Positions 1-22,800 of a DNA stretch of 64,000 nucleotides are shown piece after piece. Each line of letters begins with the position of its first letter. Position 1 is the stretch's first letter. The position numbers and the translations under genes are program-made. Origin of the DNA: Azolla caroliniana (taxonomy: Eukaryota > Plantae > Polypodiophyta); assembly GCA_043228905.1 (NCBI GenBank), contig JBHGNT010000008.1, forward strand, positions 13,640,001 to 13,704,000. Reading direction: 5' to 3'. The notes under the pieces are model-generated. The model saw only the letters and a program-made list of their open reading frames with translations, searched no databases and was not told where the DNA came from.

Positions 1-511
1 GGCGTCCCAAATATGGCTCAACAACTGATCGCCGATACTGGATGCAAAGCATTACATACCTCTACTTGCCACTTGTTCCCAAGTCGGGAAGTCCCTCTGT
101 GCCACATCAAGTGCCGTATCGTTAGCTCCGTCGACATAACTCCAGTGCCCGTGCAGGTACTGGTGCATCTTGTATAGACACAATTGACTCGTCCGGATAG
201 CTAAAGAATATAGACACAAGTTTAATAGAAACCTTACACGGGAGAGAAGGAGAGAGCAGAACAATAAAGTTAATTCAAAATAATAACGCTCTATACATAG
301 AATGTTCTCAGAGAGCACTTTTATAGAAGTCCTTATGGACTGATAGAAGTATTGACATGTACTTCAATGCTCATACGAGCGACTGACACCGACTCCCAAA
401 AATATGCCTACGTACTAGGCTAGATCCGTAGACCTCTAACAGCCTACCAATTACAATCCGGTCCGTCTCTTCGATGCATCTTTTTGTTCTGGATACCGAT
501 CCAGCTCTAGC
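1..511 (-). mobile_element. Ty1/copia element 5' part (partial LTR 175-511 plus gag fragment 1-174), running off the left edge
   Basis: 1-174 is the reverse complement of ~20127-20300 (gag YKMHQYLHGHWSYVDG). 175-342 is the reverse complement of ~19769-19935. 343-511 resembles the LTR at 37200-37675. The LTR end, PBS and gag start are deleted in this copy. Confidence 0.8.
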
Positions 512-947
512 TATCATGATATGGCAAGACTCGAACCCATGACCTTATGGTATATGGGTGGAGCTCTTAACCATCACACTATCTATTGTAACTCATAGGA
601 TATTATTTTCATTATAAGAAAGTAATGTATATTCCAGATTTCTCTGGAACATTCTTGAAGTTTCAGGATTACTCCTGACAACACTATAAAAGAAGGCACT
701 AGGCATTATGTTGAACCAAATTGGTTCAACGCCAGTCTTAAGCCTCACAGCCGCTTTGTACTTATCTTTTCACATAATATATTAGCTGCTGTCATCATCT
801 TTCTCTCTCTCTCATCCTCGCTATCTCTCTCTCTCTCCTCTTCTCACTTCCTCTCTCGGGAATCTTACGCAGTCCCGTCCTCTTAGTACTAATAGTACTA
901 CACTTGTTAGTACTAATTCCATCTCTGCTTTAGTACTATTCCTCACA
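512..947 (+). repeat. 5' LTR of chromovirus
   Basis: Direct repeat of 5815-6237. TATAAA at 685-690. Confidence 0.95.
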
Positions 948-1021
948 GTTTGAACCAATTTCTTCCTTTCCTCCAACCTACTTGTCGTTCTCCCTCATCC
1001 TCCTACCCTTTTCCCTATACT

Positions 1022-2179
1022 ATGGCTACTATTAGCGCCCAAGAATATCAATCCGTTTTCTCCGAGTTATAGTGCCTAAAAGAAAAGTTTGTTGCCCTAG
1101 AACAAGAAAACCAACGGTTGATAGGGGATCTGCAACAAATCGCTCTCGAAAAACAACAAACGCAAAAACAACATGGGGAGTTAGAATTACGGGTACAACA
1201 ACTCGAAGCAGCGTTGCAACAACAAGGATCAAGTCCCCAAGGATTTCATAAAGAGCCCAAGATTGGACTTCCTGTGAAATTTGATGGAACGGGATCGCAA
1301 TTCTGGGGATTCCTTAATCAGGTACGCTTAGTCATCCAGATGCATCCTTCCCGATATCCCACTGATGCATCTCGAGTCGGCCTAATAGGCACGTTACTTA
1401 GCGGCTCCGCCTTGGCATGGTTCGTTCCGCTTCTAGAAAAACAATCACCCTTGCTTAATAACTTTGAAGATTTTATTGGTGAGTTTAAAGCCTGCTTTGG
1501 AGATACCGACAGCATCAGGATGGCGATCAACAAGATCCGAAGATTGCGTCAAGGCGATCGTCCAGCCTCTGCCTACGCGGCAGATTTCCGTCTACTCGCC
1601 TCAGATATTCCCTGGGATGATCAGGCCCTCATGGATCAGTTTCGCTACGGCTTGCGCAATGATGTCAAAGATCTGCTTTTAACCTTCCCCGAAGAACCAA
1701 AGTCTCTTACGGAGGCAATCAGTCGAGCGGTCCGATGCGACAACCGCCTTTTCGAACGGCGTTCGGAGCGTCAATTACAAATACCACGCTCTCGGCCGGA
1801 ACCCACATACGCCTCAGTCACGGCTAAACCGTTTGCACGTGATGTACCCCAAGCCAATATTCCGACACCGATGGAGATCGACACCATGCGTCGACGCGGC
1901 CCGTTATCGGAAGAAGAAAAGCAACGACGACGTGCCAATTGATTATGTCTTTATTGCGGTGGACCAGGGCATATCGCCATCAATTGTCCCCATAAGCCAA
2001 GAAGACAGGTAAATCAAATCGTCGCTTGTACTAAACCCGAGTCAATTCTTCCCTTCGGAGTGTCTGATAGTATTAATAGTACTAATAGAGTGTCAGATAG
2101 TATTCATAGTACTAATATCCCAAGTATCTCAAACAAATTTGAAATCCTTAGTCAATTAGATGAAGAGTTAAACGATTGA
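1022..2179 (+). pseudogene. gag: gag (retrotransposon gag domain, CCHC knuckle) with premature stops
   Basis: ATG 1022 is in frame with ORF 1118-1942. TAG near 1070 and TGA at 1940 interrupt it. The frame continues LCLYCGGPGHIAINC to TGA 2177-2179. Confidence 0.85.
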
Positions 2180-5100
2180 GTCCAGCCAAAATAGGAGCTG
2201 TTTGGTTGGACAGCAGCCCTAGATCAGTACAGCCCATTAGTAGTTCCATTCCTTCCAAGCAAGTTAGCAATGTGTTCCTAGCCCAAGTAATTGTTAGTAC
2301 TAAAAGTACTCCCCTAGTACCCGTCCTAGCACTCTTAGATTCCGGAGCTAATTACTGTTTCATGGATCGAAATTTTGCCGAAGCTTCTTAGATATCCCTA
2401 AGAAAACTTCCTTGTCTCGCATTTGTAGTAGTCATTGATGGTTGTCCCATTGCTTCCGGGAATATTGTAGACGAATCAGAACCCATTGAAGTTGTCCTAG
2501 GTAGTTCTGTGTGTGTAATATTATTTAATATAATTAGTAGTCCAGAGCATCCCATTGTCCTAGGATTACCTTGGTTTGAATTACATAATCCAGCCATAGA
2601 TTGGAGAACAAGAGAAGTCTGATATCGACCACCCCAAGAATCTACTCACCGAGTTTCGACCATTTCACTCCATCAATTACGCGAAGAAGGACACAAGGAG
2701 GCAATGTTCCTATTTGCAATATCAATACATCCTTCCAGCACTATTAAGAAGGACTCCTCAGTACAACTTCCGGCAAAATATCATCCTTATGCCGATGTAT
2801 TTGACAAGGTAAAAGCCGGTACCCTTTCTCATCACCATCCCTATGACTGTCCCATCGATTTACAACCAGGAACCGAGCCACCATGGGGACCAATTTACAA
2901 CTTGTCACCCACCGAGTTAGAAGTCCTTCGAGCCTACATAGAGGAGAACTTGGCAAGCGGGTTCATCCGTCATTCGAAATCTCCGGCGGGTGCACCCATC
3001 TTCTTTGTCAAGAAGAAAGATGGCTCACTTCGTCTCGTCGTTGATTACCACGGATTGAATAAGGTCACCATCCGGAATAGGTATGCACTTCCTCTTATAT
3101 CAAGTCTTTTAGAGCGAGTTAATGGTGCCAAGTTTTTTACCAAAATCGATCTACGAGGAGCATATAACCTCGTGCAGATCCGACCAGGAGATGAATGGAA
3201 GACCGCCTTTCGCACGCGGTATGGGCATTTCGAGTATACTGTTATGCCGTTCGGCCTAACCAATGCACCCGCAGTCTTCCAACACATGGCAAATGATATA
3301 TTCAGAGACCTCTTGGATATCTGCTTGATCATCTATCTTGATGATCTATTGATTTATTCGAAGACCTCTTGGATATCTGTTTGATCATCTATCTTGATGA
3401 TCTATTGATTTATTCGAAGACCCAGCAAGAGCACGATTCTCACGTACTATTAGTACTAAAGCGACTCCGCGAGAATGGTCTTTATGCCAAGCTAGAAAAA
3501 TGTAGCTTTGACTGCAAGGAAGTGGAATTTCTAGGCTACGTCATCTCCTCAAAGGGCATTGCCATGGATCCAGCTAAAGTCCAAACTGTACTAGAGTGGC
3601 AAATTCCACGGTCGGTACGAGATGTACAATGTTTTCTAGGTTTTGCTAACTTCTACCGTAAGTTTATACAGGATTACTCGAAGATTATCCTACCCCTCAC
3701 ACAACTTACGAAGAAGGGCCAAGCATTTCTTTGGTCCATTGAAGCAGATATGGCGTTTCAGCATCTTAAGAAAGCCTTTACATCAGCACCGATTCTAGGT
3801 CATGTGGATACTAGCAAACCATTCATCATGGAGGCCGATGCTTCAGATTTCGCCCTCGGTAGCATCCTTTCTCAACAAGGACATAAAGAAGAGTTGCATC
3901 CGGTGGCTTTCCATTCGCGCAAATTCGATGTTGCGGAAATCAACTATGAAATACATACAAGGAGTTATTAGCCATCGTGGATTCATTTGTGCAATGGTGG
4001 CATTTCTTAGAGGGCTCTCCACATTAGGTCGTTGTCTTTAGTGATCATTAAAATCTTGCTTATTTCCAGAACGCTCGCGTACTAAATCGACGGCAAGCTC
4101 GGTGGGCGCAATTCCTCACGCGTTTCGACTTCAAAATCACATATCGACCGGGGAAGCATCAAGGAAAAGCAGATGCACTATCACGGCGTTCATATCTTGC
4201 ACCTCGTCCTGGTGATCCAACATTTGATAATCAAAAGCAAGTAATCTTGGGACCAACACGATTGCACACGACGCGGATTTTTCTCACCCCGATGGATTCA
4301 CGGATTACCGATGACATACGTGCAAACTTGAAGACAGATAGTTTTGCTCAAGACATCCTGGCGCACATTGATACTTCTCGGGCATCCTGTTCTCAGTCTC
4401 ACCAACCAGGTATTGACTACCGACAATTTGAATATCATGATGGTTTGTTATTCTTTAAAAAGCGCGTATATGTCCCCGATTGCTCCTATCGCCTTCAAAT
4501 CGTCCAGCATTGTCACGACACCCATACAGCGGGACATTTCGGTAGTACTAAGACATTGGAGCTAGTGCAACGATCTTTTTGGTGGCCCCACATGCGCCGT
4601 TTTGTCGACGACTACGTTCGGACCTGTGATGCTTGCTGCTGAGCAAAGATGCCACAACACCATCCATATGGCTTGTTGGAACCCTTACCGATTCCAAGTA
4701 AGTCGTGGCAATCTATTTGTCTTGATTTTATCACAGATCTGCCGGTCTCGCAGGGGTTCGATGCTATTTTAACCGTCGTCGATTGATATACGAAGATGGC
4801 ACATTTTGTTCCGTGTACTAAGGCCATCACTAGCGAGGAAACCGCCGCCCTAGTCATGCATGAGGTATTTCGGCATCATGGCCTCCCAGACAGTATCATC
4901 AGTGACCGAGGACCGCAATTTGTCTCCAAATTTTGGTAGCATCTCTTCAAGATGGTCAAGGTCTCTTGCAACCTCTTCTCCGGCTACCATCCTCAGACCA
5001 ATGGGCAGGCAGAACGAACAAACCAAACGCTGGAGCAATATCTCTAGTGTTTCCGGAGTTATCAACAGGACGATTGGCCCGAGATTCTCCACTTTGCGGA

Positions 5101-5803
5101 GTTTGCGTATAATAATGATGTTCACTCCTCGACTCGAGTCTCCCCATTCTACGCTTATACCGGTTCTCATCATCGCTGGTCGGTGATCAACACCCCTGAG
5201 CTACCTACCAATCCTCGTGCCGGGGATCATTTGGAGAGACTACACAAGATCCAGACAGATCTCTCGACTCATCTTCGTCATGCTCAACAGACACAGAAGA
5301 CTTACGCGGATCGTCATCGGCTTCCCTCCTCTTTTGCCATCGGAGATCGAGTATGGCTCTTACGTCGTCACATCAAGACTACTCGACCGTGCGACAAGTT
5401 GGATTATCGACGACTCGGTCCTTTCCGTATCACGGGTAAAGTTAATGATGTCACATTCCTCCTTGATCTCCCTCCGCAGCTTCAGATACATCCGGTTTTC
5501 CATTGTTCTCTTCTTGAACCTTATAAAGCAAACACCATTCCCGATCGTGTTATACCACCGCCGCCCCCGCTGGAGTTGGACGCCGGCTCGGAGTATGAAG
5601 TTGTGGCCATCCTCGATTCCAAACTTATTCACAACAAACTTTATTATTTGGTGGATTGGGTTGGTTATAGTCCGAGCGAACGCACTTGGGAACCCGTCGA
5701 GCATGTTGCCAATGCTCAGGATCTACTTGCTGATTTTCACCGAAAGTATCCGGACAAACCCGGTCCGCAGTCAGCACCGACTCGTTCCACTTGTCGTCTT
5801 TAA
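2170..5803 (+). pseudogene. pol: pol (PR-RT-RNaseH-IN-chromodomain) in the -1 frame relative to gag, multiply disrupted
   Basis: ORFs 2176, 2704, 3369, 4247 and 5183 carry [33 protein letters not shown], the HHCC region (H..TAGHFG...CDAC), LGPF and the chromodomain YEVVAILDS...YLVDWVGY..SERTWEP. Confidence 0.92.
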
Positions 5804-5814
5804 GGGGGAGATAG

Positions 5815-6237
5815 TGTCATGATATGGCAAGACTCGAACCCATGACCTTATGGTATATGGGTCGAGCTCTTAACCATCACACCATCTATTGTAATTCATA
5901 GGATATTATTTTCATTTATGTTTTATTATAAGAAAGTAATGTATATTCCAAATTTCTCTGGAACATTCTAGAAGTTTCAGGATTACTCCTGACAACACTA
6001 TAAAAGAAGGCACTAGGCATTATGTTGAACCAAATTGGTTCAACACCAGTCTTAAGCCTCTCAGCTGCTTTGTACTTATCTTTTCACATAATATATTAGT
6101 TGTTGTCATCATCTATCTCTCTCTCTCCTCTTCTCACTTCCTCTCTCGGGAATCTCACGCAGTCCCGTCCTCTTAGTACTAATAGTACTACTCTTCTTAC
6201 TACTAATTCCATCTCTACTTTAGTACTATTCCTAACA
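5815..6237 (+). repeat. 3' LTR of chromovirus
   Basis: Follows the PPT, has TG...CA ends, and repeats 512-947. Confidence 0.95.
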
Positions 6238-8830
6238 GTATCCTATTTCTCCATCTGTTCCATAACTGAGGAAAATACATTTCTTGGACCTTGGTGCAAG
6301 TTTGCGGTGATCATCTTTCGGGATGAGAGGGTACGCCTCACATCCGAAAATGCTCAGCTTGTCGTAATTCGGCTTACTACCGATCCATAGTTCTTGAGGG
6401 ATCCAAAGTTCTAGAGGCCTACTCATCGAATTATTGATTATGTGTACAGCCGTAAGTAGGGCCTCTGCCCAGAAGCCATCCGACAGTCCGGAGTGTTGGA
6501 GCATGGAAACTATCCTTTCTTGAATTGTCTAATTCATTCGCTCGACAATTCCATTCTGCTCCGGACTGTGGGGTGTCGTAAATTCACATCTGATGCCATG
6601 TTGTCGACAAAATTTGACGAATTCCTCTGATTTGAAATCTCCCCCGTTATCGGTCCGAAAGCATTTCAATTTTCGGCTGGACTGATTCTCAACCATGGAG
6701 AGCCAATCGGAAAAGATCGAGAAAACACAATCTTTGGTTTTGATCGGATAAGCCCACACCTTCCGAGTCGAGTCATCAATGAAGCTGACGAAATACAGAG
6801 TGCCACCGAGGGATTGATGTGGCATAGGACCACATTAGTCCGAGTGGACCAAATCGAGCAGACTCGATTCTCTCGGGGCAGATGAAGGGTGTGTTACGGC
6901 TATCTGCTTACCGTATTGGCAATGCAAAACTGATGATCTGAGAAGGAGGGTTTGGGGATGTATCCAACTCGAGATAAGTGTGTGATGCCGACCTTGCTGA
7001 GGTGTCCGAGTCTCCGTGCTAGAGTGATGACACGGGAATGTCAACCAAAAACAAGTCACCCTCTCTAAGTGTGACGTGCAAAGGATACAATGAGTGTATC
7101 TTTGGTCCTCGAGCAAGCAGGAGGTTCCCTCTATGGAGCGTCCACCCTCCTAATGAGAAGCCAGCACGGATGCCGTCTGAGATCAGTGGTCGTGAGAGCT
7201 CAGGTACATGTCGGACATTGCGTAGTACTAATGTAGAGCCACCCGCAAGGTTGAGCTATACGGTGCCCATACCAATTATGTCGCAATGTTGCGAATTTCC
7301 TACCCGAACTGAGTCGGAATGTCAGGCAGTGTATTGCCGAAATTGGGATCAATGAGGAGTCACATGAATGGACGCACCCGAATCTAAGAGCCACATGCTT
7401 GATTCTGCAGTCATAAGCAGAACTTTTGATTCGACTGAGTTCTCAATTGATAGTATATTCGGGTCATTTGTCAATACTTTGGCCGAAGAGCCGATGTAGT
7501 TGAACTCCTCGTGCCGGTCACTCTTCTGCTCGGCTCGCTAAGCCTTATCGTTTTTGGCCTTCAGTGCACGGCAGTCGGCTTTGATGTGTCCAGGTTTCTT
7601 GTAGTAGTTGCAGACTTGATTATCCCAGGACTTGCTCCGACTTCGTTGATTATTTGACTGCCGTGAAGAACTTCTTCCACGGTTGTTCGATCGGTCGGTC
7701 GAACCTTGTATTATTTAAGCATTGTTGGCTGAATCGTTAGCAAACCGAATGGTAGCTCTGACGATTCTGTCGAGCTTTTCCCATTCAAGCAACTTGTATC
7801 CTTCTAGAGGGTCTCATCTCAATGGGGTCAATTTGCCCCTTGACTATTAAATAGTCTTGCATCTGCTCCTTCCAGAAGTTGAAGTTCGATCCGTCGAACT
7901 TCCTTAGACTCATTTCTGACGAGCCGTATGTTGAAGCCATCTGTGTTGGCATAATAGACTTTATCCGGAGTTAGCTACGAACTGTGATGGAGTGTTGGAG
8001 CTTGGCTCACTCAATACCGTTCTAGCCGAAGTTGGACACAAGTCGTGTTGATTACGAATATCAATGAATCCTGTTCAGAGTGACTACTATCAACTGACAT
8101 AGTCGAGTTGAACCCGAATTTGATGATTCAATTTTTCCGAAATTTCTCAACACGAATTATATGCAATACTCCAGGCTGATCTTGTTTCGGTTAACGGAAA
8201 CGATGAGAGGGACGGATCCAACTGGTCCTCCCGAATGTCATTCAGTCGAATGAAACACATATTGGGGTTGCCCTTGGAGTCGTGTTTGCTTCAAGTGACT
8301 ACGGCGAGTAGGAGAAAAGCGTCAGATGACCTATTTGATTTCCGCCTAGCCAAGTGAAGCAACGATTTGGCCTAGTCAAGATAGAAGTTTCACTCCGAGT
8401 GGCTACAATCACACAACCAAGAGTGACCTAGAATGGTAGAGTGCAGACTTCGTCATGTTTCTCTTTGCGTAAACAATCTTGTTGTTGCTTGCTTGTCGAG
8501 ATCAGCTAAGATCTTCAGGATACACAAACAAGAGTTGTCGATGGAGACTAGATAGAAGGCGGCAGCAAAATCAAACAGACAACCATGTTGTGATACCAGA
8601 TGTTGGGAACACCACCATCTAATGCAGAACTCAGTCGACCCTCTCTATTTGAAGATCATAAGATTATGTACAAACGAAGAAAGATCAATGGCAACATGAG
8701 CCGAAAACAAGATGCAACAAGTACACAACAGAGAATTAGAGACAGGTAAGCACAATGTCAACGAAGTTTATTTCAACCTTTTACAAAATGAGCAACCACA
8801 CGTAACTACGTTACAAAGTCAGTTTATATA
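6238..8830 (-). mobile_element. Truncated Ty1/copia element (partial 5' LTR ~8601-8830, PBS, gag, protease, integrase)
   Basis: tgatacca at 8591-8598 is the reverse complement of the tRNAiMet PBS start. gag KFDGSNFNFWK near 7900. Integrase LYFVSFIDDSTRKVW, RTDNGG, PEQNGIVERMN, FWAEA. Cut at 6238 by the chromovirus LTR. Confidence 0.88.
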
Positions 8831-11800
8831 TTGACCGGGATCGGATGGGTCATCAACCAAGTCGACTCGGATGGTTTGCGATATCCGATCCATTTCGGAG
8901 CAAAACTTCTCAACGAAAGACAACAGGGATATGCACAAGTTAAAAGAGAATTATGGGGAGTCGTGTCAGCGATAAGATCAAATCGAGATTATTTTATCAG
9001 AGCCGAAGTAGTGATCGAAACTTATTGTCTTCCGATAGTCGGCATGATGTGGTGTTGTACGATACCGGATATGGCTATGCTAAGATGGATTGCATATGTA
9101 AAGTCGCTTAATCCGGAGGTACGACACATCTTTGGAAAAGACAATGCAATAGTGGATATGTTGTCAAGGGCACGGTTCGGAGACGACATAGCCGAATCTG
9201 ATAATGAAGAAGCTTCCGAAAACTACTTTACTTCAGAGCACATTTGTCGGGTGAATGTAATCCGAGAATTTCGGGAAGCTGAATACGAGGGAGAAAGCCT
9301 GATGATCGGGAAGGTGCTACAAGAAATCGAGGAATCATTGGACAATATGGAAAAGAGAGCCGAGATCCGAAGTAAGAAGCGGCAAGTCCGGAAGTTCTTC
9401 TTGAACAATGGATTAATCTGGAGGGAGCCGAAAAGACCGAATGGCATAGTACCACTGTGGGTAGTCGGAACAAAAGAGCAATGAAATCCAATAATATCCG
9501 AATTTCACAAATCCGATTGGGCTAGACATCGGGGAACATGGGCAACATTTGCGAAGATCAAGCAAAAATATTGGTGGAAGAATATGTATAAAGATGTACC
9601 GGAGTTCACAGGAGCTGCGAGAAATGCCAAATCTACTCCGGAGTTCAACACCAAGATGAATTACATCTGACATTCTCACTGACAATCAACTTCAAATGGA
9701 TGATTGACATTGTGGCCATGCCAACCGGGATCAGACAAAAGAAGTACTTGCTCGGGAAGATTCGACGAACCAAGTAGAAGGTCAGGCGCTACGGAAGAAG
9801 ACACGTTCTGCAGTATGCCAATTTCTCTTGGAAGAAGTGTTCTGCAAGTATGGGTGCGTAGGACGAGTGATTGCGGATCGGGGAGAACTTGACTCTAATA
9901 AAGCTAGGGAATTCTTCGCCAAACATGGTGTACGGTTAACACTGACCACGGCATACAATCTGGAAGCCAACAGGAAGATCGAACGAGGACTGTCATAGTC
10001 TAATCGTTAAAGCATTTGCAAAAGCATGGGATAGAAGGGTGAAGAATTGACCGCAGATGCTTCCGTATGCACTATGGGTAGATCGCACAACGCATAGTTC
10101 CGTGACTAGTTATATGCCAGCGGAACTTATGACCAGCCAAGCACCGGTAATGTTGGCAGAAACCGCAATTGCGATATGGACAGTTCTGTCATGGAAGGAA
10201 GAGATGAGCCGGGAAGAGCTATTAGCGGTTCAGATACAACAACTAGAGAGAAGATCGGAAGACATAGCGGAAGCAATACGCCGACAACAAGAACCACGGT
10301 TCCGCAACAAAAGGCAATTTGACACAAAGCACCGTCTACGACCACAGAAGATTGAAGAAGGAGATTGGGTGATAGTCTATGACAGTAGTTTGGATCATCA
10401 ACACACAACGATCTAGAAATTTGCTAAAAGGTGGTTCGTGTTGGGAATATGTCCCTGTAGTGGGAGGAAGAACCGACTGATCGGAAAGCCGACAATCGAT
10501 GACAGGGAAGATCCGATTGTTCGGAAAGCCGACAGTGGAAAAGTCGAAAACAGTGAATTGATTGTTTGAAGATTCAACTATTATTATTATTATAGTAATA
10601 ATAATAATGATGATGTATGGAAACAGGTCCCTCTAGATGGGAAAGAGAGAGGAGCCGAGTTGATGAGTGACTCAGTCGAGGCCGATAGGCCAAGGCCGAA
10701 ACCGGAATCGTGTAAATAGCCAACTCGGGTGACTATACTTGTAAATAGTATAAGTGTGCGCCCCATGAGGGCTACGTATGTAAATAGCCAGAAAGTTGTG
10801 TAAGTATATATACAACTAGGGCAAACTTTATGTGTGTGCAGAAGTTGTAGAACGCAAGAGAGTGTGAGAGAGAAAAGTGTGAGCCGCGCCATAGCTGTGT
10901 GAGTAACAGCAGACGCGAAGAGCCCTGTGCGGTTGATGCACTCGTGAGAGAGTGTTGTAATCTTCTCGCTATTGTATATCCACTATTTTGTATAGTGAAG
11001 AATCTATTCCCGTGGTTTTTCCCATTTTAGGGTTTCCATGTAAATCTCTGTGTATACATCAGATGTTTAACTTGTCTTTCTGGCATTTCTTGTGATTCGT
11101 ATTTCAGCGCATGATTTATTTATTGTGATCTATTCCGCATCGATTTCTCAACAATCTGTTATCAAAGCTTGAGGTGCAAGCATGGAAGGAGGTGTGAGCG
11201 GATTCCCAGGTATGATAGTTCTAAACTCTCAGAACTATGCAAACTGGAAGATCAAAATGGAAGACCTTCTCATAGTAAAAGACCTATACGAGCCAGTCGA
11301 CAGAGCAGAAATACCGAGGGGGGTATTGGAGTCAGACTAGAAGCTTCTGAATAGGAAGGTGGTGGCCACAATCCGACAATCTGTCGATGTAAGTGTCCTT
11401 CAGCATGTGGCGAACGACACGAATGCCCACGAGATGTGGCAAAAGTTGTCGGGTCTGTACGAGAGGAAGAACGCGCTAAACAGAACCTCGCTAATGAGGA
11501 AAATCATATGGCTGAAATACAGAGACGGTGAGAGCATCGTCGAACACATTAGCACGTTCATGGGGTATGTGAATCAACTTTCAGCGACCAAGTTTCCCTT
11601 GGATGACACAATACAGGCCATCCTATTGATGTGCACACTACCGGAAAGCTGGGAGAACCTGGTGATTACTCTCAGCACCTCCTATCAAGAAGAGAACTTG
11701 TCTTTACAGACGGTGAAGACAAGCATCCTAAACGAGGAGGCAAGGAGGAAAGACAAAGTCCAATCCTGTCCCAAATGGAGTCGAATCTGACTCAACACAT

Positions 11801-14800
11801 GGACAGAGCAAGAGACCGGCGAAGAAGAAGTCCGCAACGAACGGACAAATCCCACGCCAAATCGAAGTCCAGAGGTAAGCCTGTGTGCTTCTATTGTGGA
11901 AAACCTGGACACTTCCAGAAGGACTGCCGACACATGAAGAAAGATAAGTCTGTCGAAAATAATGTTGAACCCCGGAAAATTCCGGATGAAAACAACATTT
12001 CAGCCATTGCTATGAGCAATGAAGAACTCTTGTTCATTTGTGAACAGACAAGTGCAAATCTTGTGAGTGAATATTTCACGTGGGTGATCGACTCCGGTGC
12101 ATCCTTCCATATTACTCCGTCGAGAGATTATTTCTCGACTTACATAGCTGGGGATCATGGCTATGTAAAGATGGGTGATAGTGGAGAATGCAAGATAACC
12201 GGAGTCGAAGGTGTGTGTTTAACGACGTCGATAGGGTGTCGACTAACGTTGAAGGATGTTCGACACATCTCCGATATCAGATTGAATCTGATATCGACTG
12301 GAAGGCTTGACGACGAAGGCTACAGTGGTAGTTTTCGGAATGGCAAGTGGAAGTTCTGCCGAGGAAATCTTATAGTGGCCTGAGCACAGAAAGAAGGCAC
12401 ATTGTATATGATGCATGCCCGACTATGCAAATCGGAAGTAAACGTGGCAGCCGACTCGGCAGGAGAGATATGGCATAAGCGGCTAGGCCACATGAGTGAA
12501 AAGGGAATGTACCTGCTAGCCGACTAGAAACTTCTACCAGAAGTCAAGGGAGTGCACCTAGAGAAGTGTGTCGACTACTTAGCCGGAAAGCAGAACAGGA
12601 CGGCATTCCACTCGAGACCACCGAGGAGAAGAGAAGCTGCACTAGAACTAGTACACACGGATGTGTGCTATGTGGATGCTCCATCGCATTGAGGAGGACA
12701 GTACTTTGTAACGTTTATTGACGACTACAGTCAGAAAACATGAGCCTTCGTACTGAAGTCGAAGGATCAAGTATTGTCGGTTTTCAAGGAGTTCCAGGCA
12801 AGAACCAAAAGAGTGACAGGTCAGAAACTGAAGGTTGTCCGAACCGACAACGGTGGCGAGTACAGAGGGCAGTTCGAGGAATACTGCAAGAGCCAAGGTA
12901 TTAGAATCGAATACACAGTACCAAAGACCCCAGAGTTGAACGAGCTTGCAGAGAGGATGAATCGAACAATCATGGAGAGAGTAAGGAGCATGCTCTCTCA
13001 TGCAAAACTGTCGAAATCCTATTGGGCTGAGGCGTTGTACACAGTTGTTTATCTGATCAACAAGTCTCCCTCGGTGCCATTAAAGGGTGATGTCCCACAA
13101 AGGGTGTGGACAGGGAAGGATGTCTCCTACCAACACCTGAGGGTGTTTGGATGTTTGGCGTATATGCATGTACCAAAGGATCAGAGGACTAAGCTCGACA
13201 GCAAATCGAAAGCATGCATATTCATGGGATACTCAGAAGATGAGTTCGGCTACAAGCTATGGGACCTAGTCGACAAGAAGGTAGTGAGAAGTTGGGATGT
13301 AGTCTTTCTAGAAGACAAGACAATTGAAGACTGGAAGCAACAGAAGTCGGAACCGACTCCCCAGTCAACCTCGACTACCATCGACTTAAGGTCAAGTGAG
13401 TCGTCACCGACAGTTGTAAGGAGACAGCTGATCGACAGAGCTGAATCCGAGTCGGTTGACTCGGAAAGACCGACAGACTATGAGTCAGAGTCGGCAGACC
13501 TGCTAAAATCAATTGAGGAATATGAGTTGGAGTTGTCGAACCTGGAGATGCCGATTGATGAGCAGAATCCCGAGCAGAGAGAAGAGTTGGTAGAGACATC
13601 TGGATTGGAGCCAACAATGAGTGGACGAAGATACCCACTCAGAGAAAGGAAGGCACCGATTACATATGCTAGTCAATACGTCCTCTTGACTGATGACAGT
13701 GAACCGGAGTGCTATGAAGAAGTCATTGCCGACGAGAGTAAAGAAAAATGGTTGAGCGCGATGCAAGAGGAGATGGAATCCTTGCACGCAAATTACACCT
13801 ACGACCTAGTAGAGCTGCCGAAAGGTAAGAGAGCACTCAGGAATAAATGGGTCTACAAGGTCAAGACTGGAGAAGTCGACAGTGAGCCCAGGTATAAAGC
13901 CCGCATAGTGGTGAAGGGTTTCCAACAGAAGAAGGGCATCCACTTTGACGAAATATTCGCACCAGTCGTGAATATGACATCAATACGAATTGTTCTGAGC
14001 ATAGCGGCCAGCATGGACCTGGAGATCAAACAGTTGGATATCAAAACCGCATTTCTGCATGGAGAGTTGGACGAAGAAATCTACATGTATCAACCCGAAG
14101 GCTTTGAGGAGAAAGGGAAAGAGAATCTAGTGTGTCGACTGAGGAAAAGCTTGTACGGTATAAAACAAGCTCCACACCAATGGTACAAGAAATTTGAGTC
14201 CTTCATGGTGGAACATTAGTTCCAGAAAACACAGGCCGATCACTGTGTGTTCATAAAAAGGTACGAAGAAGGAGATTTCTTGATTCTCTTCCTATATGTT
14301 GATGATATGTTGATAGTCGGTCAAGACACTAGGAAGATTGGAAGCTTGAAGAAAGCTCTCGGCAAGTCATTTGCCATGAAAGACCTTGGACCGGCAAAGC
14401 AAATCCTAGGAATGCACATAACCCGAGACAGAGCTCGGAAGGTGCTATGGTTGTCACAACAGAAGTATGTGACAAAGATCCTAGAAAGGTTCAACATGTT
14501 GAACACAAAGCCGGTCGGCTTAGTGTTGCCGACAAATTGCAGATTGAATGCAAAGCAGTGTCCGAAAGGGCAGAAGGAAAAGGCTGAGATGAAGAAGGTA
14601 CCATATGCCTCAGCCGTCGGCAGTCTAATGTATGCTATGGTCTGTACGAGACCGGACATAGCATTTGCTATGGGAGCAGTAAGCCGATATATGAGTAATC
14701 CAGGGAGAGAACACTGGGCAACAATGAAGTGGATACTCAGGTACCTGAAAGGCACCTCGGAGGTGTGCCTAAGGTATGGTGTCGGAAAACCTGTGCTGGA

Positions 14801-16823
14801 AGGTTTTACTGATTCGAACATATCTGGAGATACCGACTCAACCCGATCCACATCAGGGTACGTGATGACCTATGCAAGGGGAGCAGTGTCATGGTGGTCA
14901 CAACTGCAGAAGTTTGTAGCCTTGTCGACTATAGAGGCAGAGTATATGGCAGTGGTAGAGGCCGGAAAAGAGCTGATTTGGATGAGAAATTTTCTCACCG
15001 AACTAGGCATGAAGCAAAAGGAGTTCTTGCTTCACTGTGACAGTCAAAGCGCCATACACCTAGCCAAGAACGCGGCATACCACTCCCAGACCAAACACAT
15101 ATAGAGAAGGTATCATTGGTTGCGGGAGAGAGTCAAAGAAGGAGAGTTTTCCCTTGTGAAGATCCATACCGACAACAATGGATCTGACATGCTGATGAAG
15201 AACCTACCTATGGACAGACTCAGAGTTTGTCGACAAAATACAAGACTGACAGATTTCCTCCCACAGGAGTGAAGTGGGAGTTTGTTGGGGATATGTCCCT
15301 CCAGTGGGAGGAAGAACCAACTGATCGGAAAGCCGACAATCGAAGAGTCGAAAACAGTGAGTCGACTGCTTGAAGATTCGACTATTATTATTATTATAGT
15401 AATAATAATAATGATGATGTGTGGAAACAAGGCTGATAGGCCAAGGCCAAGGCCGAGGCTGATAGGCCAAGGCTGAAACCGGAATTGTGTAAATAGCCAA
15501 CTCGGGTGACTATACCTGTAAATAGTATAAGTGTGCGCCCCATGAGGGCTACGTATGTAAATAGACAGAAAGTTGTGTAAGTATATATACAACTAGGGCA
15601 AACTTTATGTGTGTGCAGAAGTTGTAGAACGCAAGAGAGTGTGAGAGAGAGAAGTGTGAGCCGCGCCATAGTTGTGTGAGTAACAGCAAATGCGAAGAGC
15701 CCTATGCAGCTGATGCACTCGTGAGAGAGTGTTGTAATCTTCTCACTATTGTATATCCACTATTTTGTATAGTGAAGAATCTGTTCCCGTTGTTTTTCCC
15801 ATTTTAGGGTTTCCACGTAAATCTCTGTGTATACATCTATTTAACTTGTCTTTCTGGAATTTCTTCTGATTCCTATTTCAGCGCATGATTTGTTTATTGT
15901 GATCTATTCCGCATCGATTCCTCAACATTTTGGACCATACAAAGTTCGGAAAGTTTTTGACAATGGAACCTACCAACTAAGTGAGTTCGATGGAACGGTA
16001 CTATGGGTGCCTATAGCGGGGAAACGGGTGAAGATTTTCAAGAAGCGAACTGACAACGAACCCTGCATGACTGTAGGCAAGACCGTCAGTGTGGAGCAAT
16101 CAGACAAAGATCACGGTGGTGCAGAAAGCGAGGAAAGAGAGTTGGATTTAATAATCGACATAGGGGAACAGACAGAGGGTGCTTCAGATGAAGAAGAGTA
16201 ACAAGGAAGTACCGGAGACTTTGGCACATACCAGAGGATGTGAAGGTTCGGAGGGGGTGAGTGTCGTGATGTACTTTATACACTACGTAAAATATGTGTG
16301 GAGTACCCGATTGACTAAGTATAAAGAAATAGGAGAAAATACTACAATAATTATGTTACATGCATAGTGCAAAATTCGAACCTTGTACCTCCATGTTAAC
16401 GATTTTAAGCCTTACCATTATACTAGCATATTATGAATTTTAAAGTTATACTAAACTCTATCCCATGTAAATATTCGAGATAAGCATGATAAAAAAAGTT
16501 ATTCATGCATACACACTCGAGTTAAATGAAAAGATGTGATAAAAAGCTAATCATGCACATATAGTGTGCATGAAAACTAAAGTTAGAAAAGGCATGATCC
16601 TTGCACATGGTAAACTTAGACTCTTCCATCACTATATAAGGAAGAGAGAAAGATGTATATGGGGTTGAATATTTTTAGAAGGGAAATTAATAAACTATAC
16701 TTGTGGGATTCACAAGTTTTTTTATCTCTTTCTTTTTATTTATCTAAATTCATATTCTTATCTAAGTGTTGATTAATACACTATACCCGTGGGATTCGCG
16801 AGGTTTTATATCTTTTACTTACA
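8831..16823 (+). mobile_element. 5'-truncated Ty3/gypsy element of a second lineage (RNase H-integrase, 3' LTR ~16262-16823), split by a copia insertion
   Basis: RNase H TGIGWVINQ...YAQVKRELWG and integrase 9500-10438. The frame resumes at ~15933 to give RWFGPYKVRKVFDNGTY. PPT ggagggggtgag near 16250, then LTR tgtcgtgatg. No chromodomain seen. Confidence 0.8.
10439..15927 (+). mobile_element. Full-length degenerate Ty1/copia element (Tnt1/Tork-like)
   Basis: LTRs 10439-11153 and 15283-15927. Degenerate PBS tgttatcaaagc 11157-11168. PPT 15266-15280. gag-CCHC, PR (WVIDSGAS), IN, RT (LYVDDML), RNase H. Degenerate TSD gttcg/ttttg. Confidence 0.95.
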
Positions 16824-16867
16824 ACCTATTCACGGGGAAGAAGTTCGAATGGAATACGGAGCATACC

Positions 16868-19800
16868 TATTGAGCGGGCAAGCTCAACCGGATCCGGATC
16901 GGCTGAATGATCCAGTGTCAGGAATAGTACTAAAGCAGAGATGGAATTACTACTAAGAAGAGTAGTACTATTAGTACTAAGAGGACGGGACTGCGTAAGA
17001 TTCCCGAGAGAGGAAGTAAGAAAGTGCAACTTTTCTTTATCTCCTTATTGAGAAAGGATGCTACCGAGGGCGAAATCTGAAGCATCGGCCTCCATGATGA
17101 ATGGTTTGCTAGTATCCACATGAGCTAGAATCGGTGCTGATGTAAAGGCTTTCTTAAGATGCCGAAAAGCCATATCTGCTTCAATGGACCAAAGAAATGC
17201 TTGGCCCTTCTTCGTAAGTTGTGTGAGGGGTAGGATAATCTTCGAGTAATCCTGTATAAACTTACGGTAGAAGTTAGCAAAACCTAGAAAACATTGTACA
17301 TCTCGTACCGACCGTGGAATTTGCCACTCTAGTACGGTTTGGACTTTAGCTGGATCCATGGCAATGCCCTTTGAGGAGATGACGTAGCCTAGAAATTCCA
17401 CTTGCTTGCAGTCAAAGCTACATTTTTCTAGCTTGGCATAAAGACCATTCTCGCGGAGTCGCTTTAGTACTAATAGTACGTGAGAATCGTGCTCTTGCTG
17501 GGTCTTCGAATAAATCAATAGATCATCAAGATAGATGATCAAACAGATATCCAAGAGGTCTCTGAATATATCATTTGCCATGTGTTGGAAGATTGCGGGT
17601 GCATTGGTTAGGCTGAACGGCATAACAGTATACTCGAAATGCCCATACCGCGTGCGAAAGGCGGTCTTCCATTCATCTCCCGGTTGGATCCGCACGAGGT
17701 TATATGCTCCTCGTAGATCGATTTTGGTAAAAAACTTGGCACCATTAACTCGCTCTAAAAGACTTGATATAAGAGGAAGTGCATACCTATTCCGGATGGT
17801 GACCTTATTCAATCCGCGGTAATCAACGACGAGACGAAGTGAGCCATCTTTCTTCTTGACAAAGAAGATGGGTGCACCCGCCGGAGATTTCGAATGACGG
17901 ATGAACCCGCTTGCCAAGTTCTCCTCTATGTAGGCTCGAAGGACTTCTAACTCGGTGGGTGACCAGTTGTAAATTGGTCCCCATGGTGGCTCGGTTCCTG
18001 GTTGTAAATCGATGGGACAGTAATAGGGACGGTGATAAGGAAGGGTACCGGCTTTTACCTTGTCAAATACATCGGCATAAGGATGATAATTTGCCGGAAG
18101 TTGTACTGAGGAGTCCTTCTTAATAGTGCTGGAAGGATGTATTGATATTGCAAATAGGAACATTGCCTCCTTGTGTCCTTCTTCGCGTAATTGATGGAGT
18201 GAAATGGTCGAAACTCGATGAGTAGATTCTTGGGGTGGTCGATATCGGACTTCTCTTGTTCTCCTATCTATGGCTGGATTATGTAATTCAAACCAAGGTA
18301 ATCCTAGGACAATGGGATGCTCTGGACTACTAATTATATTAAATAATATTACACACACAAAACTACCTAGGACAACTTGAATGGGTTCTGATTCTTCTAC
18401 AATATTCCCGGAAGCAATGGGACGACCATCAATGACTACTACAAATGCGGGACAAGGAAGTTTTCTTAGGGATATCTGAGAAGCTTCGGCAAAATTTCGA
18501 TCCATGAAACAGGAATTAGCTCCGGAATCTAAGAGTGCTAGGACGGGTACTAGGGGAGTACTTTTAGTACTAACAATGACTTCGGCTAGGAACACATTGC
18601 TAACTTGCTTGGAAGGAATGGAACCACTAATGGGTTGTACTGATCTAGGGCTGCTGTCCAACCAAACAGCTCCTATTTTGGCTGGACTCAATCGTTTAAC
18701 TCTTCATCTAATTGACTAAGGATTTCAAATTTGTTTGAGATACTTGGGATATTAGTACTATGAATACTATTTGACACTCTATTAGTACTATTAATACTAT
18801 CAGACACTCCGAAGGGAAGAATTGACTCGGGTTTAGTACAAGCGACGATTTGATTTACCTGTCTTCTTGGCTTATGGGGACAATTGATGGCGATATGCCC
18901 TGGTCCACCGCAATAAAGACATAATCAATTGGCACGTCGTCGTTGCTTTTCTTCTTCCGATAACGGGCCGCCTCGACGCATGGTGTCGATCTCCATCGGT
19001 GTCGGAATATTGGCTTGGGGTACATCAGGTGCAAACAGTTTAGCCGTGACTGAGGCGTATGTGGGTTCCGGCCGAGAGCGTGGTATTTGTAATTGACGCT
19101 CCGAACGCCGTTCGAAAAGGCGGTTGTCGCATCGGACCGCTCGACTGATTGCCTCCGTAAGAGACTTTGGTTCTTCGGGGAAGGTTAAAAGCAGATCTTT
19201 GACATCATTGCGCAAGCCGTAGCGAAACTGATCCATGAGGGCCTGATCATCCCAGGGAATATCTGAGGCGAGTAGACGGAAATCTACCGCGTAGGCAGAG
19301 GCTGGACGATCGCCTTGACGCAATCTTCGGATCTTGTTGATCGCCATCCTGATGCTGTCGATATCTCCAAAGCAGGCTTTAAACTCACCAATAAAATCTT
19401 CAAAGTTATTAAGCAAGGGTGATTGTTTTTCTAGAAGCGGAACGAACCATGCCAAGGCGGAGCCGCTAAGTAACGTGCCTATTAGGCCGACTCGAGATGC
19501 ATCAGTGGGATATCGGGAAGGATGCATCTAGATGACTAAGCGTACCTGATTAAGGAATCCCCAGAATTGCAATCGCGTTGCATCAAATTTCACAGGAAGT
19601 CCAATCTTGGGCTCTTTATGAAATCCTTGGGGACTTGATCCTTGTTGTTGCAACGCTGCTTCGAGTTGTTGTACCCGTAATTCTAACTCCCCATGTTGTT
19701 GTTGCGTTTATTGTTTTTCGAGAACGATTTGTTGCAGATCCCCTATCAACCGTTGGTTTTCTTGTTCCAGTCCATAAGGACTTCTATAAAAGTGCTCTCT

Positions 19801-22800
19801 AAGCACATTCTATGTACAAAGCGTTATTATTTTGAATTAAGTTTATTGTTCTGCTCTCTCCTTCTCTCCCGTGTAAGGTTTCTATTAAACTTGTGTCTAT
19901 ATTCTTTAGCTATCCGGACGAGCCAGTTTTGTCTTCGCTTCCGCAATCGTATTCTTCCACATGGTATCAGAGTGTGAGGGTTAAGAACCTTTGCAGCCGA
20001 CAAGCGTTTTCTGAAGACAAACCCTAACCCCCGGTAAAGATTAGATAGAAGAAAAATATGGACCAAGGAATGGCTAGCTCGCTCCCGACGGAGAAGCTCG
20101 ACAGATTCAATTATGCATCTTGGTCATACAAGATGCACCAGTACCTGCACGGGCACTGGAGTTATGTCGACGGAGCTAACGATACAGCACTTGATGTGGC
20201 ACAGAGGGACTTCCCGAATTGGGAACAAGTGGCAAGTAGAGGTATGTAATGCTTTGCATCTAGTATCGGCGATCAGTTGTTGAGCCATATCTGGGACGCC
20301 AAGACGCCGAAGGAAGCTTGGGGAAACTTGAAGAAGGTCTTCGCCGCAAGCACCACGGCCCGGAAGCTACAACTCTGACAGGAGTTGAGCAATGTCCGAC
20401 AGAAGGACATGTCGGTGACCGACTATACGGTCCGGATCAAAGACATCTGCGACTCACTTGCCTCTGTCAACGTAACCGTCGAGGACGATGAGATGGTGCA
20501 GGTTTGTCTCAGGGGCCTGGTGTCAAAGTTCGGAGCATTCTAGATGGCAGTCTATACAAGAGAGAATACGCCCTCGTTTTTCGACTTACAGTCGATGCTC
20601 CTAGTAGAGGAGAACCATGCGGGTGTGTCAACAACCATGCACACAGACAACAGGATGTTGTACACGGAGGCGGATTGGCCCCTGGTCGTGGTGGACGAGG
20701 TGGATCGGCACGCGGTGGAAGCGGTTGACAAGAGCTGAACCGAAGGCACAAGGATGGTGCCAACAATAGTTTCAGACCCTTCGGAAACAGGGGGAGTGAA
20801 AGCAGCAATGGAAACCAGCAAGAGAAGACCGCACCGGAATGTTGGTATTGTGGCCGGAAGGGCCATAGAGAGAGCGCGCATGTTGGAAAAAGTGTGCCAA
20901 TTCGGACAAATTTGGATCCGGCAAACTTGGAGGAGGAAGTCGGAAAAGCTCGCACTACGCGGAGGGACTAGAAGGATCCAGTTCCAGAAATGGAACAGAC
21001 CCAACCTTTGTGATGAAACACAAGGCTAACTCGATGAAGAAGATCACTTATGGTTCGAAGCAAGTGTGGTATGTTGACTCTAGAGCATCGAACCATATGA
21101 CAAGCCACGAAGAGTGGTTTTCATTCCTGGAAAAACCGGAGCAACTGGGAGTTGTCCATACTGGAGACGACACTCCTCATACCATCGAGCACATCGGCGA
21201 GGTCCCTCTTAGCCATGTCGGGCAGAAGGGCGTTGATGAACGTCCTACACATCCCGACAATCACAAAGAATCTTGTTTTGGTCGGCCAGATTGTCGACCA
21301 AGGGATCCAGGTTCGGTTCACACATCTTGGGTGCTTCATCGAAGAAGAGGGCAAAGTCGCGCAAGGGCGCGAAGACGGGAGGATGTTTATCCTCGAGACA
21401 AATGATGTTGGCACTGCTATGTTTGCAAAGGGGCAAAAGGACAAGTCGGACATCGACCTGTGGCACAAGCAGATCGGCCACATCAATTTCCAGAACCTTC
21501 AAGAGTTGCAGTCAAAACACGTAATTTCCAGACTGCCGAAGTTCAGTGGCTGGAAAGGCCAAACCTATGAAGCATGCCAGCTCAAGAAGCAGCATAGGCT
21601 TCCATTCCCCAATGAGAAGAATTAGAGATGGAATCGTCTTGATCTCATCCATTCATGTGTGTCTTGATCTCATCCATTCATATGTGTCGTTGGGAGTTGG
21701 TATTTCGTCTCCTTCATCGACGATTTCACAGTCACACTTGGATCTACCTAATCAAGAGGAAAAGTGAAGTCTTCTCGTGCTTTCGGGATTTGAAGAACCT
21801 TGTCGAACGCGAGACCGGAAGAAAGATCAAGTGTTTGAGATCGGATGGCGGAAAAGAATACTTTTCCAGCCAGTTCACGAGTTATCTGCAAACAAAGGGA
21901 ATTTGACGGGAGTTCTCCTGTATATACACGCCGGGGCAGGACATGGTTGATGGTCGGAACAAGACGCGGGTAGAAGCGGCAATGGCGATGCTTGAGGAGA
22001 AAAACATGGCCAAATTTTATTGGGCCGAAACGATTCAGACAGTCGCCTACATATAGAATCAGATATCTGCCTCAGGGACAAAGGAGTCATCGCACAAACT
22101 GTATTTTGAGCGGAATCCAAATTTGGCACACCTTTGGGTGTTCAGTAGCATTGCATATGTGCATGTACTGAAAGAAAAACGGAGGAAGTTAGACGCGAAA
22201 GCTGAAAAATGCATTCTCGTCGGGTACTCAGATGAACAAAAGGGTTATAAGTGTTATAACCCCCGATCAAAAGCAGTCCAAGTTAGCCAAGATGTCGTCT
22301 TCGATGAATCGACATCATGTTACTTCTCGCCACCCGAACCCAAGCCGATTGTTGTTGATGATCCGGTGGAATCCAGAACAGAGGGAAGCGTCCCGGAATC
22401 TGAATAGACAAATAGTCTGACTTCTCTCCGGATGAGTGGACCGAATCCGGATAGGTTGAGTCAGAGTGGTCAACCGGATGACGAACCGGCGAGTAGTGGA
22501 CACTCGGTCGTGCTCTCTCCGTGCAAGGAACCGAGGAGACGGTTCATGCGCAAAGAAAAGGGGAAGAAGAAGATGTCGGAGTATGACACTGGAAGAGATG
22601 AGTCGGATCGGAGCGAATCTGATTCCCGAGATGAACCTTCAGAAGAGAAGTCTGAGTCGGCCAAGAAGGCCAAGAAATCGGTAGAGCAGAAACTGCGTCG
22701 ATCGACCTGCAAAAAGAACCCTGTCAAACGCTATGTCTTGACGGATTGGTAGGTTGCCAACATCTTCACCAAATTTCTCATCCTAGACAAGTTGCATCAT

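Follow-up and report, generated by a model that had tools for sequence, protein, structure and literature searches.

An outward-facing tRNA-type module conserved in the LTRs of Tcn1-type chromoviruses, a candidate TFIIIC site

The window analysed here, the whole stretch of 64,000 nucleotides from Azolla caroliniana, contains a Ty3/gypsy element of ~5.7 kb at positions 512–6237 that encodes gag, reverse transcriptase (RT), RNase H, integrase and a chromodomain, the last recognised by Pfam Chromo with E-values of 1.6e-12 and 6e-15. The features of this element and of a diverged relative are as follows:

512–947, plus strand: 5' LTR, 88% identical to the 3' LTR
685–691, plus strand: Pol II TATA box, ~150 nt inward of module position G53 (see below); an AT-rich tract separates it from the A box
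718–729, plus strand: inferred 5' end of the genomic RNA, serving as self-primer; 12-nt complement of 950–961
950–961, plus strand: self-priming primer-binding site, pairing with the RNA 5' end
1073–5803, plus strand: gag and pol (RT, RNase H, integrase, chromodomain), spread across several frames
5803–5814, plus strand: polypurine tract and spacer ahead of the 3' LTR
5815–6237, plus strand: 3' LTR
32918–35771, plus strand: diverged Tcn1-type copy, 76% identical, a 3' half with its 3' LTR at 35349–35771

The domains follow the Ty3/gypsy order RT–RNase H–integrase and end in a C-terminal chromodomain, as expected of a Tcn1 chromovirus. Among the best 120 protein matches, those with names come mostly from fungi, amphibians and fish, with one from a seed plant (judged by names, without a reference Tcn1 tree). 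No tRNA primer site follows the 5' LTR; instead, positions 950–961 complement 718–729, which start 33 nt past the TATA box at 685. A 12-nt match of this kind, in which changes compensate one another, was found in 10 of the 11 related loci having LTR-to-gag continuity, and Tcn1-type elements therefore need no tRNA primer. By chromodomain, self-priming and size the element fits the Tcn1 clade as a self-priming chromovirus. A clean 5-bp target duplication was not found around 512–6237 and the flanks do not match; since its LTRs are 88% identical, this is possibly a recombinant or decayed copy. An inverted partial copy that lacks the LTR head lies at 16916–19770, within an inverted duplicate (1–3898 versus 16916–20300, 98% identical) that comprises part of the Tcn1-type element plus its left flank. 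At 709–730, and in the relatives L005, L009, L020 and L030, the inferred RNA start lies in a short palindrome made up of the U3 end together with the self-primer. The palindrome is retained with changes in several families, and the primer itself is T-loop-like in most.

According to the original prediction, the beginning of each complete LTR reads on the minus strand as the A box, variable loop and B box of a tRNA gene. The minus-strand string quoted there is matched exactly in the 3' LTR (5815–6237), and the module occurs in all three LTRs (512–947, 5815–6237 and 35349–35771), with G53 at 536, 5839 and 35373. Modules were scored with a position matrix built from 35 numbered real tRNAs (16 from Escherichia coli, 17 from phage T5 and 2 from the related locus L039) and with no LTR in training:

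526–581, minus strand: module of the 5' LTR; A box 581–571, tRNA positions 44–48 at 545–541, B box 537–527; 22.9 bits
5829–5884, minus strand: module of the 3' LTR; A box 5884–5874, positions 44–48 at 5848–5844, B box 5840–5830; 20.8 bits
35363–35418, minus strand: module of the diverged copy's 3' LTR; 19.1 bits

These three modules score 19–23 bits, while the best plus-strand score across all LTR heads is 8.9. T8 lies 45 nt ahead of G53, as it does in 12 of 35 real class I tRNAs (range 43–47), and TTCGA therefore falls at tRNA positions 54–58 as had been proposed. Compared with the box consensus given in PMC12498455, each of the three has no mismatch in the B box and one in the A box.

That the module is not a tRNA gene was also borne out. 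ARAGORN found no gene in the window, the tRNA covariance model gave no match there, and Rfam returned six matches at E ≤ 10 for 5700–6300, all at chance level and none of them a tRNA. The covariance model had been suggested as a check on tRNA ancestry, and here its signal was weak: the top-scoring module, at 17 bits, had an E-value of 0.093, so that none passed E < 0.05, although 24 of the 27 non-tRNA matches at E ≤ 10 were modules, with a model that demands stems as well as sequence. Two features had escaped the original prediction. The same 60–70 nt of the LTR head fold, in the window family, as one long imperfect hairpin (z −2.0 to −5.75), and the window holds two further modules outside the Tcn1-type family, with G53 at 16381 and 43630.

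Relatives were sought with the integrase–chromodomain end, which makes the search blind to the LTR, and copies were judged from contigs of public sequencing runs. This gave 122 relatives, of which 77 loci at 42–88% identity were kept. A polypurine tract and LTR start could be called by pattern in 62 of these (15 had no start called), and 57 extended at least 125 nt into the LTR (5 were too short). Together with the two 3' LTRs of the window they make up 59 heads, which fall into 23 families at 85% coding identity (12 at 80%, 5 at 75%); family representatives were picked by coverage, ignoring the motif. A search of viral contigs with a single protein gave no matches. The loci L085–L131 are chromovirus-like polyproteins on short contigs filed in bacterial or archaeal genome bins, most likely eukaryotic contamination.

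Over 620,570 positions the matrix gave 66 matches of at least 13 bits. Two are training tRNAs, and the other 64 all lie on the minus strand: 62 in Tcn1-type LTR heads, one in the LTR of a second lineage and one unassigned. The median of the best score per head is 22.0 on the minus strand versus −3.9 on the plus strand, and the module is present in 51 of the 59 heads and in all 23 families. It is absent from 51 more distant relatives (246,237 bases), where the highest score overall, 13.2, falls inside pol and the 900 nt that follow pol reach at most 9.9 (29 of the 51 extend that far). The published box consensus behaves alike: in-group sequence (492,688 positions) has 49 matches, 45 of them on the minus strand, and out-group sequence (486,456 positions) has 2; the B box is matched with at most one mismatch in 20 of the 23 families, and the A box, at a distance of 30–60 nt, in 17. 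In a tree of 48 rows, a branch with weak support (89/73; 98/96 when L033 is omitted) separates the 28 in-group rows from the others, and five separate losses of the module were placed on this tree.

ARAGORN, run on 60 of the 77 loci, recognised no real tRNA genes other than two in L039. Genuine tRNA genes (for Asn and Thr, and one cut off) lie near truncated Tcn1-type copies at L039 553–627 and 831–905 and at L059 1–51, possibly by chance. These two loci of 77 are what could be adduced for the idea that the module is a landing pad, upstream of which Pol III-targeting elements insert. We consider this very improbable: the distances differ between L039 and L059 (~140 and ~770 nt), no fixed-distance insertion upstream of the A box was seen among the heads inspected or among the loose ends and joints listed, and the idea leaves unexplained why the carrier retains the module.

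Identity over 228 pairs of families (L073 left out, 3 pairs dropped for too few sites) is 0.86 in the boxes and 0.76 at positions 44–48, compared with 0.37 in the spacer, 0.38 in the flanks and 0.42 at fourfold sites; the families are kin rather than independent, and anchoring the modules with the matrix raises the box value somewhat. Box identity stays at 0.85–0.86 in every distance class, while silent sites, spacer and flanks are near saturation (0.36–0.42). Among the 23 families the most constant bases are T8 (19), A14 (21), G18 (21), G19 (21), G46 (22), T47 (23), each of G53 to C56 (22), A58 (23) and C61 (18), with positions 44–58 forming 15 contiguous conserved positions. G18, G46, T47, G53, T54, T55, C56 and A58 are found in 15 of 15 representatives with coverage of at least 5 (L073 left out). 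Position 59, which is N in the B-box consensus, is free and shows all four bases among these 15. At the CpG of positions 56–57, the degenerate side is changed in 21 of 53 scored heads and the invariant side in 1 of 53. The A-box consensus base G10 (10 of 23 families) and the structural invariants T33 (6 of 23) and C25 (5 of 23) are weakly kept, and positions 25–43 are random between families.

Spacing is conserved as well. A free search for the A box over 25–90 nt peaks 44–45 nt before G53 in 19 of the 23 families, whereas the position of G53 in the LTR varies from +25 to +72. A TATA box lies 145–253 nt inward of the module in 13 of 15 families having a pattern match, and the tract upstream of the module is 79–85% AT versus 61% for the remaining U3. 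The four cloverleaf stems pair at 0.38–0.63, which is the partner-shuffled level, compared with 0.94–0.99 in tRNAs. A cloverleaf mimic was accordingly rejected, the stems being at chance and the anticodon-loop and other structural invariants lost. A tRNA-type origin, outward orientation, lack of a cloverleaf and selective conservation of the boxes between families were thus all upheld; the insulator or antisense-RNA role suggested in the original prediction is a putative one, and judged from the sequences the module is real and under selection.

The hairpin of the window family is not a general property of the module. Minus-strand hairpins are strong in L015 and L004 (z −5.3 and −6.4), but z ≤ −2 is reached in only 3 of 23 families (median −0.7) and no 6-bp helix register is common to 22 families. 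A general hairpin was rejected on these grounds; the window-family hairpin had initially lent serious weight to the notion of the module as a by-product of an inverted repeat.

Within the window family the picture is less clear-cut. The proposal that the boxes are kept above the sequence between them, which stands between families, fails among window-family copies, where positions 21–35 are as fixed as the boxes; over this short range hairpin and promoter are therefore indistinguishable. Eight of the 59 heads score below 13 bits, including contigs with coverages of 71 (L017), 11 (L031) and 8 (L062), and in L062 the module is cleanly deleted. The module is dispensable in some lines, as three apparently multi-copy subfamilies are without it (coverage 8–71; contig depth is no copy count). 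In L017 and L066, from two assemblies (coverage 71 and 2), the LTR head gives way at ~+110 to unrelated sequence at an identical junction; this may be a chimeric LTR that has spread although its module is not intact. Non-canonical boxes have spread too, since C56 is changed to T in 11% of window-family depth in run X1 and 9% in X17 (1.5% in X19), and the G at position 14, found in both LTRs of the window element, makes up 28% of X1 depth; of the runs used, X19 is flagged as probably DNA and X20 amounts to 2 contigs at a depth of ~4, so that neither bears on expression. Other frequent variants of the family lie at positions 36–41, 20a, 12, 10 and 9 and upstream. At the LTR-head CpG sites 5836 and 5864 of the window, plus-strand G-to-A changes are listed while C-to-T stays below 3%, a strand bias in cytosine loss.

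Losses of this kind would be expected if the module were a relic of one old capture of a tRNA or SINE, retained as a passenger or solely for its hairpin next to the integrase attachment site. One gain with scattered losses fits the tree, there are multi-copy lines without the module, and the hairpin explains conservation in the window family as well as the boxes do. Between families, the constancy of box identity at all distances, against near-saturated silent sites, spacer and flanks, and the lack of a general hairpin largely refute this reading, and overall we regard it as improbable.

A second lineage in the window carries the module in the same antisense orientation. It is a gypsy element without chromodomain at 8792–16900 (RNase H at 8792–9484), whose integrase is split by a Copia element (10439–15928) and whose LTR starts at 16262 after a polypurine tract:

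16371–16425, minus strand: antisense module of the gypsy 3' LTR, 110–165 nt inside U3; 27.3 bits, with a perfect A box

RNase H identity to the Tcn1-type element is 16%, and none of 98 homologues has an informative name by which the lineage, represented here by one family, could be called. Where the window copy differs from C61, the canonical base is found in 95–99% of the depth (four runs, three organisms; 40 of 164 variant rows). The highest cover in organism C (9,432 and 4,602) falls on the B-box half of the module; it is 88–325 across the next 190 nt of U3 and climbs again at the TATA region. The capture may have been independent or may have occurred via exchange of U3. A third tRNA-type module (43600–43680, minus strand, G53 at 43630; 22.2 bits, B box exact) sits between divergent TATA-like boxes (~43535 on the minus and ~43709 on the plus strand), each followed by a CT-rich tract. 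Not far from it, a 105-nt unit with open frames and no Pfam match is repeated in five tandem copies at 42531–43055.

On balance we lean, at slightly better than even chances, towards the view that the first 25–120 bases of U3 contain tRNA-derived A and B boxes, facing outward, which function at the DNA level as a Pol III type 2 (TFIIIC) site and would keep the Pol II promoter of the LTR open. Boxes at exact tRNA spacing amid surroundings at chance level make recruitment of host TFIIIC likely. TFIIIC would bind both boxes and could load TFIIIB onto the AT-rich tract between A box and TATA box; a nucleosome-poor barrier might then form between the flanking heterochromatin and the Pol II promoter, and a short outward transcript, if there is one, would be a by-product. 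Chromodomain integrases are thought to target elements to heterochromatin, and tRNA genes and TFIIIC sites can act as chromatin barriers. Since U3 is copied into both LTRs each cycle, selection on the module would operate at every transposition. We favour the TFIIIC site because conservation tracks what a DNA-binding factor would read rather than RNA pairing, and because of the AT-rich tract where TFIIIB would load. Self-priming, a separate TATA box 145–253 nt inward, lost stems and fixed spacing are what the sequences themselves show. Two base counts speak against a promoter, namely that T47, constant in all 23 families, lies outside the box consensus and that G10 is so often lost. More tentatively, and with a probability we would put well below one half, two unrelated autonomous gypsy lineages of non-seed plants might each carry an outward tRNA-gene mimic as a portable TFIIIC barrier against silencing.

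The invariant T47 and the fixed spacing would suit the main rival, which the original prediction did not consider: a host tRNA would anneal through its T and D arms to the plus-strand U3 of the genomic RNA, as at the 3' part of the bipartite site of Ty3, and would bridge or dimerise the RNA or aid strand transfer. Contacts of this kind are described for Ty3, between U3 and both arms of the primer tRNA (PMC5371799). All 64 non-tRNA matches are antisense, in both lineages, and the module stands directly after the polypurine tract with its spacing fixed to one base and positions 44–58 contiguously conserved. Since TFIIIC tolerates 30–60 nt between the boxes (PMC12498455), a promoter would not require such fixed spacing, which is what colinear tRNA pairing would favour. 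Tcn1-type elements, though, prime themselves (PMC6317226), and the pattern of change does not resemble that of a duplex. Changes that G–U pairing would tolerate number 3 of 150 at seven invariant positions, two of which (46 and 47) were chosen after the data had been seen, versus 78 of 231 at eleven other conserved ones; position 59 is free in mid-duplex, positions 25–43 are random, and one family's self-primer changes without a matching change in the U3 box. We judge tRNA annealing unlikely. The HIV-1 U3–R region reportedly also embeds a tRNA-like sequence. Use of the U3 box as a second site for the self-primer was rejected, as the two do not co-vary.

Returning to the TFIIIC site, the boxes might also be a working Pol III promoter whose RNA matters, either as a short hairpin or as an antisense transcript from the 3' LTR over the polypurine tract and the integrase end that tunes silencing or translation. 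The strong hairpin of the window family, in which copies vary mostly at positions 36–41 and in the outer A box, would fit such an RNA, as would the run of four T that 13 of 23 families have no more than 54 nt from C61, versus 6.7 expected; five of these 13, however, form one related group. Hairpin RNAs transcribed by Pol III from promoters of type 2 are described for bovine leukemia virus (PMC12498455). On the other side, the hairpin z-score reaches −2 in so few families, without a shared helix register, and transcript length would range from ~60 nt to more than 1.3 kb, the window 3' LTR having no T-run terminator for 1369 nt downstream. This leaves a functional Pol III RNA quite unlikely in our estimation. 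Selection for long antisense read-through was rejected because the scarcity of such runs is not strand-specific: over the final 900 coding bases, 5 of 7 families have fewer plus-strand A-runs, but 6 of 7 have fewer T-runs.

To our knowledge, how chromodomain retrotransposons remain expressible after landing in heterochromatin is an open question, for which a 55-nt module whose invariant bases are known offers a direct test. If the portable-barrier reading is true, retrotransposons would possess an anti-silencing device in cis, and many TFIIIC sites would be scattered through host heterochromatin; if bound, high-copy LTRs could account for a large share of all TFIIIC sites of the host. Were tRNA annealing true, reliance on a tRNA by an element that primes itself would be equally unexpected.

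The Tcn1 clade as described by Neumann (2019, PMC6317226) and Novikova (2010, PMC2864245) shares with the elements studied here the chromodomain, self-priming and a size within 5466–9444 bp, and it is reported from mosses and club-mosses (PMC6317226); the named protein relatives may point to an affinity with fungal and vertebrate Tf1/Sushi-type elements as well. In the passages searched, neither paper mentions a Pol III promoter or a tRNA-like sequence in the LTR. The bipartite primer-binding site of Ty3 is alike in that U3 of a Ty3/gypsy element contacts the T and D arms of a tRNA. Ty3, however, is tRNA-primed and pairs with one tRNA (PMC5371799), whereas priming in Tcn1-type elements is tRNA-free and variation follows the promoter consensus.

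The A and B boxes stand between promoter and flank as in tRNA-gene and TFIIIC barriers, but those are host loci with demonstrated binding, while the LTR module is mobile and known here from its sequence. The Pol III promoters described in LTRs so far belong to tiny non-autonomous elements; the present clade is autonomous and has kept one, in reverse orientation, while neutral sites diverged to saturation. Our literature search, which mostly did not cover subscription journals and Repbase reports, found no description of the module for Tcn1 or of any autonomous antisense case. What is already known, from PMC10886601, are the Pol III promoters in the LTRs of the non-autonomous Helenus, Ajax and Cassandra. 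The same paper states that "not a few" Repbase LTRs hold tRNA-like pieces, and because only TRIMs were analysed there, more cases may sit unremarked in Repbase.

Cassandra, which the original prediction had named as a parallel, and Ajax are TRIMs that carry a Pol III promoter in both LTRs; unlike the module, these promoters are 5S-derived and belong to non-autonomous elements, and Cassandra transcripts run between the 5S parts of its two LTRs (PMC10886601). The closest described parallel is Helenus (TRIMp3; Kojima, 2024, PMC10886601), which includes one Selaginella family. Its LTRs contain tRNA-derived sequence that is conserved around boxes A and B and mostly is not a working tRNA. Helenus elements are non-autonomous and 311–1263 bp long, their Pol III promoter is proposed to transcribe the element itself, and the autonomous partners of such elements must, according to that paper, use Pol II. 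Tcn1-type elements, in contrast, are protein-coding (gag-pol, ~5.7 kb), have their own TATA box and carry a module that faces away from the element.
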